From NCBI GenBank assembly GCA_013265495.1, contig MU057654.1, positions 337,558-392,052 of the forward strand: DNA of 54,495 nucleotides, given 5' to 3'. The notes below the pieces were generated by a model that was given only the letters and a program-made list of their open reading frames with translations, made no database searches and had not been told where the DNA came from. The stretch comes from Vicugna vicugna (Eukaryota). A program made the position numbers and the translations under genes. Below are positions 4,458-53,430 of the stretch, piece after piece (position 1 is the stretch's first letter; every line of letters starts with the position of its first letter).

Positions 4458-4478
4458 TGTCTCCCTCTCCCTAGCTCT

Positions 4479-4516
<38 letters not shown>

Positions 4517-4519
4517 GCG

Positions 4520-4568
<49 letters not shown>

Positions 4569-4611
4569 GCGCTCTCTCTCTCTCTCTCTCCTAGCTCTCT
4601 CTCTCTCTCTC
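4458..4611. repeat. Compound (CT)n microsatellite with recurring CCTAG(CG) interruptions
   Basis: Directly visible; cctagc interruption occurs four times. Confidence 0.95.
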
Positions 4612-9696: not shown

Positions 9697-10127
9697 TATA
9701 GTAGAGATAATAGGTGCTATTGATGCCCTGTTCAGATTCCTGGGCTAGTACATCCAACCCCCAGGCTGCTATGAGCGTTGGATGCTAAAGATTCATAGTC
9801 ACACCCTTGTCAGAGGATACCTCAGAGCTAAAACCGCTTTCATCTCACACCAACTCACACACACATTACAGCTTTCAGTCAGTGGAGACAAGAGCCTGGC
9901 TCCTTTGTCTCAAGATGAATCAGTTCTGTGGCGCCCTTCACATCCCAGAGCTGCCCTGGGCTCAGGTTGAGGCTACACTTCAGTTGAAATATAACTATGC
10001 CCTGTTTCTTCCCCTGTGCTATCCTGCTCCCCTCACCTCCATATAGGTTTCATACACTCCCTAAATAAACCACCATCAGAGGAATCCCCAGGTCATGCTC
10101 TGCTTCTAGGGAACCCCACTCGTGACA
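9697..10127 (+). mobile_element. ERVL solo LTR (LTR16-like)
   Basis: Contains ctccctaaataaacc and ends ctctgcttctagggaaccccactcgtgaca, the LTR16-type 3' terminus; 5' boundary approximate. Confidence 0.65.
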
Positions 10128-10779
10128 TAAGGCTATTAATTTATGTTTCATCTCTACAGCTGTCTGTGTTCTCCGCTTTCCCTTTCTCAGTTCAGCCAGT
10201 TCTTACTTCTTTGCCTCAGAGAAAGTGTGGCAGGACTTGCCAAGTTTTATTTCCCCAGAACCTCAAATCCATTGTGAAGAATGAAGTTCAATTAGTGAGG
10301 GATTTCCTTCACACTAAAAAGAAATCCACTCTCCAACTGGAGGGAAAAAAAGAAGAGATCTCTGAGTCTCTTGAGCAGATAAGACCACTACCCTGCTCCC
10401 TGACAGCACCCCCCAAAAAAAGAGTAGGAATTCAAGGTTGCTGGCTATATGATGCACCTAGAAGGCTGAATCCTACCTACCCAGGGCTCCCAGCCTCACC
10501 AAATTCCTATGCCATCTATGCCAAGCATGGCACAAAAGCTGCCAAACTGGTCCTTCTGGAAACTGGGATGGTGGGCACCACAGCTATAACTAGCGTGGAA
10601 CGACATCACCTCATAAGTCTATGTAGATTTCCTCTACATACAGTTATTTTCTAGAAAGTTGAGCCATCTAATATTTCTTTCCCATCTTAAAGGCCAGCAA
10701 AGGGAGATTATTATGTTACTATGAAACAATCTGTTAAAAAACTGTTTATGAAGCATTTTCATCAACTAATAAAAGGCAT

Positions 10780-10968
10780 ACTCTGCAATGTAACCTGAAA
10801 AAAAAATTCTAGGATATCATATACAGTATAATTGCAGTGATGTTAAACGCACACACATCCACATTCTTACACAGATAGAAAGACAAGAAATAATTATTGG
10901 TGGCTTATTTTTATTTTCTTCCTTACAGTTTTCTGTATTTTCTAAACTTTTTGTAGGCAGGATTAATG
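10780..10968 (+). mobile_element. Old L1M(E/C)-type 3' end fragment abutting/truncating the ARMCX-like ORF
   Basis: ttttattttcttccttacagttttctgtattttctaaactttt resembles the 3' terminus of ancient L1ME/MC families; subfamily not determined. Confidence 0.55.
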
Positions 10969-11096
10969 TCTTTCGAATCAGCTGGTCTTTTCTTGTTCTG
11001 CTCTCCACCACATGTTAGTTGGTATATGTAGTACCAGGAGCCAGTCCCGACCACCAGGCCTGCTGCCATCAAGCCCAAATTCTGAGCACGGCCCAT
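10923..11096 (-). CDS. Unannotated ARMCX-family paralog: 57-aa small ORF (N-terminal signal-anchor only); microprotein or truncated pseudogene
   Basis: Manual translation gives MGRAQNLGLMAAGLVVGTGSWYYIYQLTCGGEQNKKRPADSKDINPAYKKFRKYRKL*. Ungapped identity by hand is 19/35 to ARMCX3, 18/42 to ARMCX2 and 17/30 to ARMCX6 N-termini in this window. Kozak context is ggcATGG. Homology is secure; translation is unproven. Confidence 0.6.
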   Translation of the reverse strand: MGRAQNLGLMAAGLVVGTGSWYYIYQLTCGGEQNKKRPADSKDINPAYKKFRKYRKL

Positions 11097-11245
11097 GCCA
11101 CAGCTGGAGCGAATATCTCAAGGGTCTCTCTCTGTCCTCTCTCTCTCTCTCTCTGTCTGTCTCTCTCCCTCTGGCTGTGAGAGCCAGTTGGACTCTGGAG
11201 TCTGAAACTGCAGTCAAGCTGGATCTGGGGTAGGAGGGAGGGAAG
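11097..11245 (-). other. Splice acceptor (AG at 11226-11225) and 128-nt ATG-free leader of the ARMCX-like unit, with a (GA)n tract
   Basis: Minus strand ccctccctcctaccccag|atccagcttgact matches the ARMCX2 coding-exon acceptor ctttaccccag|gtcctgcttggct. ctccagctgtggcATG matches ARMCX2 ctccagctgcaccATG. Confidence 0.7.
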
Positions 11246-11389
11246 AGGGAAATGAGGTGCTGAGCTTCTTTTTCTTTTGGATTGCCATCCCAGCACTGAT
11301 AGATGGACAAGCAGATAGGGACAGACCAAAACCAGAACCAGACAGGAACAAACAGGAGACAATGGGGACTCAGTGCTTTGGTGAATGCA

Positions 11390-11870
11390 GTGAACGCCCC
11401 CGCCTTTCCCTGTCGGTCCAGGTGGTCAGCCCTGTCTATCACCTCACAGTACCCCCCCCATCGCTCTGCTCCCCGATAGCCGCTTCCTCCCCTCTCCTCT
11501 GCCTGCTCATGTCATTGACGCCAAGCCTTTCAGCTACCGTTTACAAGGCACCGCATGAAAAAGAGGCTGGGTTCGGGTGTCTCCGTGGCGAAACAGAAAC
11601 GTGCCTCCAAACTTGAAAATCGTGCTGCTACCCTTCACCCTTGCTCCAGGACTCTCCAATCAACACCCACCCACACCGAGAACCATAGGAATCAGGACAG
11701 GTTTCCTCCTCGTCCTCCTCCTTCCTTACCCAGTCACGCCACCTCCAAAGAAATCGGGGGCTGGTTACCTGAGCAAGAACCGCTATCTGGACCAAGACTT
11801 CAGCATCCTGGTCACGTGAAGCTACGTCACTGGTGAGTTCGGGTCCCAAATTTGCCCTCATATTATTAGG
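11390..11870 (-). promoter_or_regulatory. CpG-enriched promoter and first exon of the ARMCX-like unit
   Basis: Minus strand aaatttgggacccgaactcaccagTGACGTagctTCACGTGACcagg (core 11811-11829) aligns with the other three ARMCX promoters. Candidate donors are CAG|GTAACC (GT 11768-11767) and TGG|GTAAGG (GT 11729-11728). CpGs are retained relative to the flanks. Confidence 0.75.
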
Positions 11871-12504
11871 AAAGCAAACGGTAACCCGCACCCTCCACCC
11901 CCCACCACACAGGAAACTGTCGCTCTTTTTAGTCTTTGCGCACCCAACAAACATATTGTTGATTACTGGAAGAAGCAGCACTTTCTCCGGGCTGCTGGTC
12001 AATTCTACCGCTTCTCTGGGGAATGGTTCTGTCCTTTTCCCTGCTCCCTTCACCTTTTCCCCTGGGAATCACTAATGTTGTCATCTCTGCAGTCCAGAAA
12101 ATACCTGGAAATGAGGATTGGGGGAAGGGGTGTCAGGGAAGTAAGCAGAGAGTAAGAATGGATTTCGTTATTTTCTTGTTAGCACTATTCTCTTTCCTTT
12201 TTTTTTAACTCAAATATGCATTATTTTGTTATTGAAGAATATAATTAGACTATTTTCTTTTAAGAGAAAAATATTATTTTTAAAAAAGGCATGTATCATA
12301 AACAATCATTCCCACTGCATAATGAGCTTTACACATGCCACTCAAAGCAATCTTAATGTCTTCTACATCTTGTCACAGGACAAGATCCTGATTTAATTAA
12401 TCATTTATGTGAGAGTTTACAAATCTGCTAATATGGCATAACCAACTAGGCTTTATTTCTAGAGTGCAGAGAATTGTTACAAGAGGAATGTTAGAAAACT
12501 ATTC

Positions 12505-16149: not shown

Positions 16150-17560
16150 CTGTTGGTGGGAGTGGAAATTGGGGACCCAAGCTTACTGGCGATGCAGCCC
16201 TCACGTGACCAGGAGCTGACGTGGGCAAAGGTACTTAAAGCCCTGACCGCCGTCCTCCGTCCTCCTCTGGGTACCAACTCTATTGCGCTGCGTACTGCCG
16301 TGCATTTAACCCAGGCGAGGAGGCGGAGGAGAAAATTCCCCCAGATCCGGGCAGGTGGGTGTGAGGGTGGGCATGGCCTGGCACCCCTGTTTAGGAGTAG
16401 CCCAGAGATGCGGGAGTCTGAGGCCGCGGGTGCCTCCTCCTTGCCAGCCCTTGGCCGGCTCTCCAGACCCCCGCGCTCAGTCGCAGCTCATTTTGGTGGG
16501 CGGCGGGAGAGGGGGAGGGGGGAACGTAAAGACGCTGATATACTTGCGGAGAATCCGCTTACTTCCTCTCCCAGCCAATGTTTTTCTGGTTCTGTTTTTG
16601 ACACTCAGGCCCCGCACCCCACATCCCGTCTGGTTTGAGAGGAGGAGGGAAGAGAAATAAACGTGGCAGCGCATATAAGGCCAGTGGGGAGGTTGGGAAA
16701 GGGTGATCGGAGGGGCACGCAATTAGGAAACAATCTGGCCTGTTCACTCCCACTCTCACTTCGCAGACATCTCCCCCGACCATCGCCCCCGCACCCTCCC
16801 CTTCCCCCCCGGGGGCCCCTAGTCCTTTGGGGGTGCTGGGAAATGGGTGTGCCAGCCTTTGTAGGGGAGGTGGCGGGTCTGGCTCTGTGTGGGCTTCACA
16901 GGAGGGGAGATCCTGAGAGAATCTGGTATTAAACCGCGTGCTAAGCCCCAGGCTGCTTTCCAGACACTTCCAGCTCACACAGTGCTTCGCTCCTGTTTTT
17001 TCAGCCCTGAAAAAGGAGTTCGGGTACGCAGGCGGGAGAAATGGCGGTTAACAGGGGATTGGAATGGGGGGTGGGAGGCGGAGTCCAAGAGCGGAGGAAC
17101 AGTGGAAAAACACGACAATCAAACCGAAAGGGCAAACATTGGGGCCCCTGTTCTGCAGGCTGATGCTAGGCCTAGCATGGGTGGTCATAGTAGGGAGATG
17201 CTAGTTGGTTCGGCTGTAATCCCCAGTCCCGCGTCCCATCCAGCTTTCCCTGCACCATCGCCCCGCCCCCTCCCGCTTCGGTGCAGGAGAAGGGGTGTGG
17301 CCGAGTGTCCCCGAGAAATGGCGGACAGGGAGGCGGGGCAAAGGGAAGGAGGGGTTGAGAGGGAATTGAGAGGTGGAACCGTTTGTCTTTCTCGTATGTG
17401 AATGCTAAAAAGCAATTGGGGACTCTCGTCTTGGGTCCGTGCCATCCACCAGGCTCTGTCTCCAACGTCTTCTGTCTGTATTTCTGCCCTTCAGTCTGCC
17501 CTTAGGATGAAGCTCTAACTGAACTGAAGGAAGGAGAAACAGCCCTGAATCCTTGGAGGT
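16150..17560 (+). promoter_or_regulatory. ARMCX2: ARMCX2 CpG-island promoter and non-coding 5' exons
   Basis: TCACGTGAC at 16201-16209 and TGACGT at 16217-16222; exon-1 donor CAG|GTGGGT at 16354/16355; YY1-like aaatggcgg near 17040 and 17317; GC/CpG-rich. Confidence 0.8.
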
Positions 17561-18338: not shown

Positions 18339-20342
<2,004 letters not shown>

Positions 20343-46549: not shown

Positions 46550-47760
46550 CGCCCACACCGACCTCTGCTGATCCGAGGAAACTTCCTCCCTTGCTTCAAG
46601 TGGTGCCACCTGCTACAGCCGACCTGCAGGATGACAGATCGAAAACAGGGGGACTAAGTGCTGTTGAGAGAAGAGGATTATGAACAAACTCTCTGATAGG
46701 TTTCCCTTCTGTCACTCTCCCCCACCCCACCCCACCCACCACACACGCGCGCGCGCGCGCACGCACACACATACACACACACACATACACACCCCGCACG
46801 CCATTTCGCCACAGTCCTGAGAGTGCAAGAAACACACTCAGACTCAGATCTAACCTAGATTTTTGCCATCTCTGGTTTCTTCCCACCCCCACCACCGCCC
46901 CGCTTAGGGTCCCCAGATGGTCTTACCCTTAAATCGACCTTCGCGGATCAGGGTTAATTTCCTTCCTCTTCTCTAGCCTGGCGTAGTGCCGCAACCTACG
47001 GAAAGACTGGCAACCCGGGAGAGGCTCGGACCCACAAGACACAGAGCCATGGTCAGGAAGACACAGTCCCAGTCAGAAAGACGGGAAACAGCCGCTACCG
47101 AGTGCTTAGTGGACGGACCAGTCCCCAGAGCAGAAAACTCTTTCCTAATTCGGAGGCCTGGTTGTCAAAGGATTCCCACCCCTATTACCCCTCTCGGGGT
47201 TCTGCTGACACATCACGTTGCACTCTCCCTCCCCATGTCCAGCCCTGCCCCGCCGGCACTGTCCTGGAGGACTAGGGGACAATACCCAGGCCACAGCTCC
47301 CTATCCAGATTATGGCCTCGGTTCCCACCAGATTCCCACCTCCCGATCTCTGGGCTCCTTTCCAAACACTCCCTCTGCTCACCATTTCGCAGCATCGAAA
47401 TGGGCTGCGGGCGGGACAGATGTCTTGGAAAGCCAGCGGCGAGTTGGAGAAACGACGGAGGCGCCCCAGGACCTGCGACGGTCTCCGCCCTGCGCCCTCG
47501 GCCAACCCCCACCTTCTGGAATCTCCCAGGCACTGACCTGCAGGAATCCCGGACAGTTTTCTTCTGCTTCCCTCTGCCGCAGGCCCGCTCGCCCTCAGGG
47601 CAATGGGGAGCTGGTACTCAGACGGGAACAACGACCAGAGCAAGAAGGACTTCTGCACACGTCAGCTCTTTGTCACGTGAGAGCTACGTCATCCACCAAC
47701 TCGGGTCCCCAGTTTCCCCTCCCACCAGCAGTGCGGCAGAGGAGGGCCCGCCCCCCTCCA
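46550..47760 (-). promoter_or_regulatory. ARMCX3: ARMCX3 CpG-island promoter and non-coding 5' exons
   Basis: Minus strand TGACGT (47691-47686), TCACGTGAC (47680-47672), TGACGT (47664-47659); donors CAG|GTCAGT (47538/47537) and AGG|GTAAGA (46927/46926). Confidence 0.8.
46738..46792. repeat. (CA)(CG)n(CA)n alternating purine-pyrimidine tract
   Basis: acacacgcgcgcgcgcgcgcacgcacacacatacacac... Confidence 0.9.
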
Positions 47761-48897
47761 TTCCCTCCCCCATACCAGGCCTTCTTACTCTTTCTTCTTT
47801 GCTAATCCCATCTCCCTGTAGTTGTGTTTGCCTTCCTCCGATTACCAGAAAGGGACAGCATCTTCCCTTGGGGTTACTGGCCACTTGTACTTTTTGAAAA
47901 ATTGCTTCTTCCTTCCCTAGGCTCCTGGGACAGCAACTCTCCTTCCACCTCCTGGCCTCCCAGCTATTAATGTCTACCATTTCCTCTGAAATCTAATCCC
48001 AGATCTAAAACGAAAAAGTCATCAGAAAAGGAGTGAGAGGGTGTTTTTTTCTTTCTTAATGCAGAAAGAATTCTTTCTGTTCTGCCCTCTCCCACCCCCA
48101 GCCTGCATTCTTTTTATGAGAAAAAAAAATTGCTGTAAAGCTATTTTCATTTGAGCAAAAAATAGAGTGGGAGTTGGAAAGCGTTGGGTGATGGCCTCCA
48201 AAAGCCCCGCACTTTCTCACTTGTAGGGAGTGTTACACATTTCACTCAAAACAATCTTAGTGTCTTCTGGGGCCTAGCACAAAACACAGTCCTGGATGAG
48301 CTAATCAGTGTGTCTGAGAATACACAGATCTTCTGACTAGGCCAGTCTTCTAAACTGGAGAGCTACAGACTTTCACTTGCATCCGACGGCAAGGAAGAGG
48401 CACAGAGCCCTCAGAAGCCAATGACACAGAAAAGGTTGAACAGAAATCACAAGTACATAGTGGATATCTGTCAGACACTGATGAAGTGAGTGTCATAGAA
48501 AGAACATTACAAAATATACTTATGGACAGATAGAGAATATCCTCCTTAAATGAAATAGTGGAGGAACACTGAGACCAAGACAAAATTGGCTAAACTTGGC
48601 ATCTAGCAACTAGTGTGAAACCTCTTCACTGACTGGTTTGATGAACTCAAAGATTCACCTGTCAGCAATCATCGAACTTTTTTAGAGTGGGAAAATAATA
48701 AAATAATGTCAGAATATGGGGTTTACAGTGGGATATTCCTTGTTTGGATATGAGGCCATTATCTGAATATAAATTTTACAATCCACAAACCATATGGGAG
48801 TGAATCAAGAGACTGGGAAGCTTGGGAACAGGCAAAACTCCAGGGAAACTCATATCGATGTAATTACTGAAGGACAGTACTGCAATATGACTGAAAT

Positions 48898-52654: not shown

Positions 52655-53430
52655 TTGTGGGAGTGGAAATTGGGGGCCAGAGCTCACTGGTGACGTGGTC
52701 GTCACGTGACCAAGAGCTGCCTGGAGCAGAAGTACTGCTAGTCGCCTCCGTCTGGGTACCAGCCCCCTATTACTCTGCAGGCTCGTGAAGGAAGAAGCAA
52801 ATTAGCCCGGACCGTGCAGGTCGGTAGAGCCTGGGCTCTCTTTGGAGGGAGATGGGGATGGGAGAGGGCCAAGAACGCCAAGGATCTGAGTTCGGGCCGA
52901 TCGGGGCTGTGTCCCCTTCTCGCCTACTTTCTAAATACCGCTGTCCCCCTCCTCGTGCCCATTTTAGTAGAGAGAACTGAGGGACTTCGGGCGGCGGGTG
53001 AGGGGAGTGAATGGCTAGTACAGAGACTCCGAGGAAAGAAACGGTCCACAATCACGGCACTCGTGTCCTGAGTGCTGCTCCGTCCACCAAGAACTCTTTC
53101 CCCTCGGTCCCCCGTCTGTCTGCAGGTTTATAGATTTGTTGGCCCGTAGGTCGCTGGAAAAAGTCGTGGCGAGGGAGGGAGCAAACTGCCTTGGGACGTG
53201 CAGGTCGGTGTGAATGTGGGATGAGTCCTGACCCCTGGGTGGGGGTGGCGGTGGGGATGGCGGAGGAGGGGCCTGGGATCGGTGCGGGCCGGGTCCAAGT
53301 CGCCCCCTCCCGGCCCCTTCTTTCTCCCATTTCAGTGCAGGGAAAGGGGTGTGGCGGCCTTTGCTGGGGAAATGGCGGACGACGGGGGGAGGCGCGGAAA
53401 GCCTGCGTTAAGAAAGTCAGGACGGTGTGA
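52655..53430 (+). promoter_or_regulatory. ARMCX6: ARMCX6 CpG-island promoter and non-coding 5' exons
   Basis: TGACGT at 52691-52696 and palindromic GTCACGTGAC at 52701-52710; donors gtgcAG|GTCGGT near 52820 and 53204; YY1-like aaatggcgg near 53370. Confidence 0.8.

Follow-up and report, generated by a model that had tools for sequence, protein, structure and literature searches.

The 54,495-nucleotide (nt) stretch of Vicugna vicugna DNA analysed here (assembly GCA_013265495.1, contig MU057654.1, positions 337,558 to 392,052 of the forward strand; hereafter the window) contains ARMCX2, ARMCX3, the start of ARMCX6, and a fourth, truncated ARMCX-family unit on the minus strand. The truncated unit is composed of a BGW-type promoter motif, a putative non-coding first exon, a putative intron and a second exon with a 57-codon open reading frame (ORF), which is closely followed by a poly(A) signal. 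Our preferred reading, held with moderate confidence from the sequence and its relatives, is that the unit is a constrained small ORF encoding an N-terminally anchored peptide. The features of the unit are as follows.

11797-11859, minus strand, BGW-type promoter and first-exon motif (blastn against 16160-16222 and alignment of four copies)
11829-11822, minus strand, cAMP response element (CRE)-like site TGACGTAG, inside the BGW motif
11818-11811, minus strand, E-box CACGTGAC, inside the BGW motif
11730-11796, minus strand, remaining part of the putative exon 1, which would be non-coding and, up to about 11745, is homologous to the first exon of the paralogues
11225-11729, minus strand, putative intron, 505 nt given the donor at 11730, ending in a polypyrimidine tract and CCCCAG
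11097-11224, minus strand, exon-2 leader, 128 nt, ATG-free, holding a (GA)n microsatellite at 11122-11180
11096-10923, minus strand, 57-codon ORF and stop (TAA at 10925-10923; the ATG lies in the context ggcATGG); homology to ARMCX N-termini covers residues 1-42, and the Lys/Arg-rich tail of residues 43-57 has no paralogue match
10915-10910, minus strand, poly(A) signal AATAAA, 8 nt past the stop, with a putative cleavage region at 10900-10897

The translation of the ORF agrees exactly with the 57-residue peptide proposed in the first-pass annotation of this DNA. In tblastn searches inside the window, a small search space, the peptide matches ARMCX3 at 20/40 residues (E 9e-9), ARMCX2 at 18/42 (E 2e-8) and ARMCX6 at 17/30 (E 4e-8), and the family likeness counted earlier by hand (19/35, 18/42 and 17/30, respectively) was essentially right. 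All three alignments are ungapped and start at Met1, so that the N-terminal region is homologous to ARMCX from its first residue. At the nucleotide level, blastn inside the window finds only two stretches of the unit that are paralogous, namely the coding start at 10992-11098, which matches ARMCX3 and ARMCX6, and the BGW motif at 11797-11859. Past codon 42 or so the homology weakens, and here the paralogues differ from one another, too. None of the 57 codons carries a disabling lesion (stop, frameshift or start loss). The locus is single-copy in its own genome apart from the (GA)n run at 11122-11180, as judged from the 2.03-Gb assembly of 12,405 contigs, in which the window is part of contig C604.

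The armadillo part of the family is missing from the unit. With ARMCX2 and ARMCX3 as queries, tblastn gave no armadillo remnant below 10923 on the minus strand, nor elsewhere on the contig, and a genome-wide search with ARMCX3 returned the family only at the known places of C604 and on three other contigs. The Pfam domain Arm_2 (PF04826), the C-terminal armadillo-like domain that characterizes the ARMCX/ARMC10 (ALEX) family, is recognized in ARMCX3 with E 2e-98 and in ARMCX2 with E 1e-93; no match above the cut-off was obtained in the 57-residue peptide or in its relative P0007. Nothing supports a transposon insertion having caused the truncation, since the interval 9900-10990 lacks multi-copy matches in the genome. 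From these comparisons the locus can securely be described as a truncated ARMCX paralogue with the promoter and exon layout of the family. The homologies of the coding start, the promoter motif and the acceptor support the earlier proposal of a fourth ARMCX-family unit head-to-head with ARMCX2, of which the promoter, the layout of the 5' exon and the anchor-coding start are left.

Promoter motif, splice sites and age of the copy

The sections of two reports consulted here describe the BGW element as a motif of about 60 bp with an internal E-box, common to BEX, TCEAL and ARMCX genes and usually located inside the 5' untranslated region's first exon (PMC1274310; PMC7586669). In the truncated unit, 11797-11859 is an inverted match to 16160-16222, which lies upstream of ARMCX2, with 76.6% identity over 64 nt (blastn). 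The alignment of four copies reveals a single homologous element, which extends about 60 nt into the presumed first exon. Against an expectation of 0.18, the E-box CACGTGAC is present at four sites of the window (five strand matches), one for each gene unit. The paralogues and the E-box copies are located as follows.

18426-20342, plus strand, ARMCX2, 638 residues
45819-44680, minus strand, ARMCX3, 379 residues
54102 onward, plus strand, start of ARMCX6, which runs off the window
11811-11818, minus strand, CACGTGAC copy of the truncated unit
16202-16209, plus strand, CACGTGAC copy of ARMCX2
47672-47679, minus strand, CACGTGAC copy of ARMCX3
52701-52710, palindrome, CACGTGAC copy of ARMCX6

A family promoter cassette had been claimed at 11811-11850. 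The homologous BGW element is indeed there, and its internal E-box, the mark of a BGW-cluster gene unit, is present despite a 9-nt deletion. The cassette is incomplete, as the 9 nt GCTGACGTG after the E-box, which hold a second CRE-like half site, are absent here and present in the ARMCX2, ARMCX3 and ARMCX6 copies. The promoter of the truncated unit still looks like an unmethylated island in the host species, because the observed/expected CpG ratio around the motif is 0.55-0.66, compared with 0.22 for the whole window; the three paralogue promoters have ratios of 0.42-0.61.

The BGW motifs of the truncated unit and ARMCX2 are divergent and 4.4 kb apart, and those of ARMCX3 and ARMCX6 are arranged likewise at a distance of 5.0 kb. 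Blastn within the window finds no homology between the two spacers besides the BGW motifs themselves. The cluster may have expanded via duplication of a head-to-head pair; a direct duplication would fit the truncated unit, whose nearest paralogue is ARMCX3 (79/120 nt), and ARMCX2 versus ARMCX6 (73/120 nt) shows no clear fit to such an event. Two minor features concern the promoter regions. A 282-codon ORF beginning with ATG (47049-47897, plus strand) lies over the GC-rich promoter and first exon of ARMCX3; with its many Pro, Ser and Arg codons it has the look of a chance frame within a CpG island. Moreover, at position 11997, upstream of the BGW motif of the truncated unit, the window has G and two genomic DNA sequencing runs labelled as the same species (X15 and X17) both have C, a polymorphism or an assembly difference.

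The splice sites named in the first-pass annotation are found as described. The donor TGG/GTAAGG is located at 11730/11729, and the acceptor CCCCAG/A at 11225/11224 aligns together with its flanks with the last acceptors of ARMCX2, ARMCX3 and ARMCX6. A second donor, CAG/GTAACC at 11769/11768, lies 39 nt upstream of the first and is closer to the consensus. The leaders between acceptor and ATG measure 128 nt in the truncated unit, 129 nt in ARMCX2, and 151 and 146 nt in the other two paralogues, and all four are ATG-free. The claim of an ATG-free leader holds for exon 2. In exon 1, an ATG at 11806, inside the BGW motif, opens an upstream ORF of seven codons, which would belong to the transcript only if transcription started upstream of it; a start at or before the BGW motif is the one reported for this family. 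The AATAAA at 10915-10910 is also present on the minus strand as claimed. The (GA)n-rich microsatellite of the leader (11122-11180) interrupts all assembled contigs and is shorter or absent in the relative represented by P0022; similar GA runs occur at 4475-4611.

The age of the copy was judged from its first 120 nt. The truncated unit agrees with ARMCX2, ARMCX3 and ARMCX6 at 73-79/120 positions, and these three agree among themselves at 73-81/120. At the protein level, the unit agrees with the paralogues at 17-20/40 residues and the paralogues with each other at 18-25/40. Since the copy is as diverged from ARMCX2, ARMCX3 and ARMCX6 as these are from one another, it appears to be about as old as their split, an event dated in the literature to before placental mammals radiated. 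The start region has drifted no further from the family than the start of ARMCX2. In addition, no tract of high identity to any single one of the three paralogues was found, so that recent gene conversion does not explain the likeness.

This age bears on a rival explanation, namely that the locus is a truncated ARMCX pseudogene, silent or transcribed as noise, whose frame has stayed open by chance, through recent common ancestry, and because only intact ORFs are sampled. We regard such a relic as a real, if somewhat doubtful, possibility. The missing armadillo domain and the 9-nt loss in the BGW motif are in line with it, as is the literature, the consulted sections of which list ARMCX1-6 plus one Armcx6-like pseudogene and allow for 'pseudogenic copies' behind orphan BGW motifs (PMC4776218; PMC1274310). 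A pseudogene as old as the paralogue split would nevertheless not be expected to keep the start, the frame and the family-invariant residues. Moreover, 31 of the 504 possible single substitutions in the ORF (6.2%) create a stop, and neutral survival of the frame to the divergence of P0007 is unlikely, of the order of 1% by a rough estimate.

Relatives and conservation of the frame

Relatives of the peptide were sought in a protein collection of 5.8 billion clusters, with a HMMER pass over 1.84 billion representatives. Six distinct related peptides were found, all from Logan or JGI assemblies.

P0002, 56 residues
P0003, 70 residues, with an extra in-frame ATG upstream
P0004, 47 residues, beginning at internal Met10
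P0006/P0022, 304 and 327 residues, read-through calls ending in the peptide
P0007, 56 residues
P0025, 50 residues

P0002, P0003, P0004 and P0006/P0022 are 86-91% identical to the window peptide, P0025 69% and P0007 61%. The position of the stop is common to five of the six relatives, which end in ...RKL or ...KKL, and Met1 is kept in all five that reach the N-terminus. Among the five stop-keeping relatives, whose ORFs are free of disabling lesions, the sole length difference is one whole codon. The tail PAYKKFRKYRKL is unchanged in four of the six relatives and conservatively altered in P0007 (PTHKKIRKYKKL). Replacements in the closer relatives are mostly conservative as well (V/M, V/I, S/T, R/K and A/G). 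The other matches of the profile search are N-termini of ARMCX1, ARMCX3, ARMCX6 and ARMC10-like proteins. Two further entries were set aside: P0008, a repeat protein among the profile matches, is unrelated, and P0005, a transporter-like protein of 782 residues listed in the 90% cluster of P0004, has no visible similarity to P0004 and looks like a clustering or look-up artefact. A metagenome scan yielded no orthologous DNA, its single locus (L004) being a chance match with 54% identity over 21 residues, and the best score in the ESM Atlas was 0.87, under the lead level of 0.9.

The read-through calls P0006/P0022 are translations through the promoter, intron and leader of the orthologous locus in a relative, a database artefact that can serve as a neutral control. 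The 327-codon frame of P0022 was rejected as real coding sequence; six TGA codons of the window pair with W in it, evidently because TGA was read as Trp. In a frameshift-aware alignment of the P0022 protein to the window DNA, with TGA read as W, the ORF is identical at 50/56 residues (89%), with no frameshift and one whole-codon gap. The intron is identical at 112/166 positions with three frameshifts, the segment comprising the upstream region, BGW motif and exon 1 at 42/58 with two frameshifts, and the leader at 20/30. Two further intron translations gave 54/78 (P0023) and 55/78 (P0024). The ORF thus changes more slowly than its surroundings in this relative (89% versus 67-72%), and the difference between ORF and intron is significant (Fisher p = 0.0015). 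This comparison is made within one species pair and is little affected by ascertainment bias; it argues against a pseudogene.

The closest relative is represented by contigs from two sequencing runs of two studies, X1 and X2. The contigs share five differences from the window, all in the ORF; three are synonymous (codons 27, 28 and 41) and two are non-synonymous (T18A and S20Y), T18A agreeing with the other relatives. With 37.3 synonymous and 133.7 non-synonymous sites, the resulting ratio of non-synonymous to synonymous change is about 0.19 (one-sided p = 0.07, from five changes only). That these changes are mostly synonymous counts against a pseudogene. Taking the common stop, the slower change of the ORF relative to its flanks, and the 3:2 division of the changes together, the frame is probably kept under purifying constraint in one clade. 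The first-pass annotation had left the choice between a microprotein and a transcribed pseudogene open; the evidence now leans modestly to the constrained ORF.

The same observations bear on a further alternative, in which the conserved block acts as DNA or RNA, as an exon of a divergent non-coding RNA or as a regulatory element for ARMCX2 4.4 kb away, and the frame is a by-product. Constraint of any kind on the sequence would leave the ORF region better conserved than its surroundings, the block stands head-to-head with ARMCX2 next to CpG-rich, promoter-like sequence, and the contigs from small runs described below cover exactly this block. Of the five nucleotide changes, however, three are synonymous where about 22% would be expected. 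In addition, the whole-codon indel, the kept Met1 and stop position, and the mostly conservative replacements in closer relatives count against a non-coding role, because a non-coding element requires none of them. We consider this alternative quite unlikely.

Hints of expression come from the runs that contain parts of the stretch. Fourteen small runs (X1-X14, from nine studies, labelled as organisms A-E or unlabelled) hold 16-29% of the sampled words, and only X1 and X2 were used as evidence. The X1 contig (258 nt, depth 30.7, from a run of 589 million letters) covers 10897-11121, and the X2 contig (199 nt, depth 2.7, from a run of 87 million letters) covers 10900-11098. X1 and X2 are RNA or targeted capture, because such depth in small runs is impossible from shotgun DNA of a 2-Gb genome. 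Both contigs end 10-13 nt past the AATAAA with no loose end, and the DNA contigs of X15 and X17 run on beyond it; the common end hints weakly at a polyadenylated transcript. On the other side, both X1 and X2 end within the GA repeat, short of the acceptor. The contigs of X15 and X17 cross the intron, with the GA repeat as their only break, and have no differences from the window in the ORF; as genomic DNA, they are uninformative on expression.

The predicted peptide and the points against it

According to the preferred reading of a constrained small ORF, an ancient partial ARMCX duplicate has kept the BGW motif, the putative non-coding first exon, the acceptor of the last intron and the first ~42 codons, which encode the N-terminal membrane or mitochondrial targeting helix. 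Past codon ~42 the likeness to the family gives way to 15 Lys/Arg-rich codons, the stop and, 8 nt on, the poly(A) signal, and purifying constraint would hold this frame of 56-57 codons in the window genome and some relatives. The result would be a small gene with an mRNA of about 0.4 kb, whose product is a single-pass, N-anchored peptide with a short basic cytosolic tail. Such a scheme would involve transcription from the BGW promoter, splicing, translation of the 57-codon ORF and insertion into a membrane, which, if ARMCX3 is a guide, may be the outer one of the mitochondrion. The product might also influence the full-length ARMCX proteins.

A structure model, used for helix boundaries only, predicts with low confidence (predicted local distance difference test, pLDDT, 57) a helix at residues 4-28, a flexible segment at 29-40 and a second helix at 41-56. 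The hydrophobic core of the first helix comprises residues 7-25. The peptide thus resembles the N-terminus of ARMCX3 in having a moderately hydrophobic N-terminal helix near 7-25, homologous to the targeting region, and, as far as the sequence alone can tell, differs from it in a less hydrophobic helix and a weak positive flank.

Basic residues flanking the helix are typical of signal anchors of the outer membrane. The first-pass annotation had named such residues for the anchor of the family; in the window peptide, those just after the helix are mostly gone: the net charge of the ten residues past the helix is 0 in the window peptide and +1 to +2 in the relatives, compared with +4 in ARMCX2 and +5 in ARMCX3, ARMCX6 also having 0. 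This loss weakens the idea of a mitochondrial decoy or modulator.

In its full form, that idea proposes an anchor-only ARMCX peptide, selected since an early placental duplication, which would reside in the mitochondrial outer membrane and modulate ARMCX/Miro/TRAK2 by competing for insertion or by pairing of anchors via its polybasic tail. In the consulted parts of the reports, the N-terminal region of ARMCX3 is necessary and sufficient for mitochondrial targeting, deletion of its residues 1-12 abolishes targeting (PMC4776218), and ARMCX3 acts with Kinesin/Miro/Trak2 (PMC8666550). The modulator idea draws on this analogy, and we regard it as an unlikely, if specific, extension of the constrained ORF.

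A coding small membrane protein outside the mitochondrion, for instance in the endoplasmic reticulum or the secretory pathway, would be compatible with the net charge past the helix (0 to +2, versus +4/+5 in ARMCX2/3) and with the Lys-rich C-terminus, since four of the six relatives have the basic tail ...KKFRKYRKL unaltered and P0007 a conservative version of it. The C-terminus of P0007 would agree with a K-x-K-x-x pattern. The window peptide has Arg at residue -3, which misfits the di-lysine rule, and ARMCX6, too, has a net charge of 0 past the helix. A non-mitochondrial location of this kind is very improbable in our judgement.

Several observations weigh against the constrained coding frame, and most of them count for a pseudogene as well. 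In the helix core, the window's ARMCX paralogues all have Gly at position 17, which is replaced by R in P0006/P0022, by D in P0007 and by P in P0025, the last of which also carries G13R. Three of the six relatives thus have radical changes expected to spoil a membrane helix, and the tail of P0025 is in addition broken and shorter. On a hydrophobicity scale, the summed cost of the helix is 3.9 in the window peptide, compared with 2.5-2.9 in the paralogues, and reaches 5.4-5.8 in two relatives. The loss of the basic residues past the helix belongs to the same side, as does the missing 9-nt segment of the BGW motif.

The regulatory part of the unit fares no better. In the P0022 relative, conservation of promoter, first exon and leader does not exceed that of the intron, so that promoter and exon 1 evolve like intron. 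Inferred from the protein letters of P0022 rather than from DNA, the E-box would have changed from CACGTG to CATGTG (Thr to Met), the donor at 11729-11728 from GT to GC (Val to Ala), and the AG of the acceptor would be lost (Asp to Pro); this relative thus seems to lack E-box, donor and acceptor.

The remaining points concern the records. No run on record as RNA is listed among the sequencing runs matching the stretch, and no splice junction is present in the contigs examined (X1, X2, X15 and X17). The protein collections searched contain no named or annotated protein and no NCBI or UniRef entry matching the peptide. Moreover, these collections hold called ORFs only, which makes species with a broken frame invisible and biases the sample toward intact frames. 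Finally, the synonymous excess in the closest relative is by itself only suggestive, five changes being far too few.

Relation to known ARMCX units

The truncated unit shares with ARMCX3, ARMCX2 and ARMCX6 (ALEX; GASP6/9/10) of the Xq22-type cluster the BGW motif, a putative non-coding 5' exon, the homologous acceptor of the last intron, a leader of about 130-150 nt free of ATG, and 43-57% identity over the N-terminal helix region. With the ARMCX3/ARMCX6 pair it has in common the cluster and the head-to-head orientation. It differs from the three genes in lacking Arm_2 (PF04826), in its length of 57 residues compared with 379-638, in its new basic tail, in the 9 nt absent from the BGW motif, and in the lost basic residues past the helix (relative to ARMCX2 and ARMCX3; the charge of ARMCX6 is likewise 0).

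The closest described counterparts are the 'Armcx6-like pseudogene' GASP10-psi and the BGW motifs that Winter & Ponting (2005) describe as orphan. Like the truncated unit, these are ARMCX-derived, have their own BGW motif and have no known coding transcript downstream. GASP10-psi is located upstream of ARMCX6, with which it reportedly undergoes gene conversion. The truncated unit is located upstream of ARMCX2, has no more than 61-66% identity to any paralogue in its first 120 nt, as expected without recent conversion, and has a conserved short ORF. The portion of that work consulted counts 23 BGW motifs in human (PMC1274310), and one of its orphan motifs may correspond to this locus.

The names ARMCX7P and ARMCX6P1 are absent from the literature searched, and nothing relevant was found there that links Armcx with a microprotein. 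A human symbol ARMCX7P may exist. The novelty of the unit is provisional, resting on peptide matches that are unnamed, none of them from NCBI or UniRef, and on the lack of mention in the literature covered.

The ARMCX cluster is an innovation of placental mammals tied to mitochondrial transport in neurons, and its described members are ARMCX1-6 and one pseudogene. If the constrained reading is true, a unit reduced to the targeting helix would be a natural 'anchor-only' variant, useful for asking what the ARMCX N-terminus does alone, and would exemplify the reuse of a truncated duplicate as a microprotein gene. If the locus is a mere relic, it would date the inverted-pair architecture of the cluster and explain one orphan BGW motif. 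Among the full-length members, ARMCX2 of the window contains a long linker rich in Ala, Pro, Ser and Gly, with A-P-S-G / A-P-T-G repeats at about residues 150-260, between its anchor and Arm_2.

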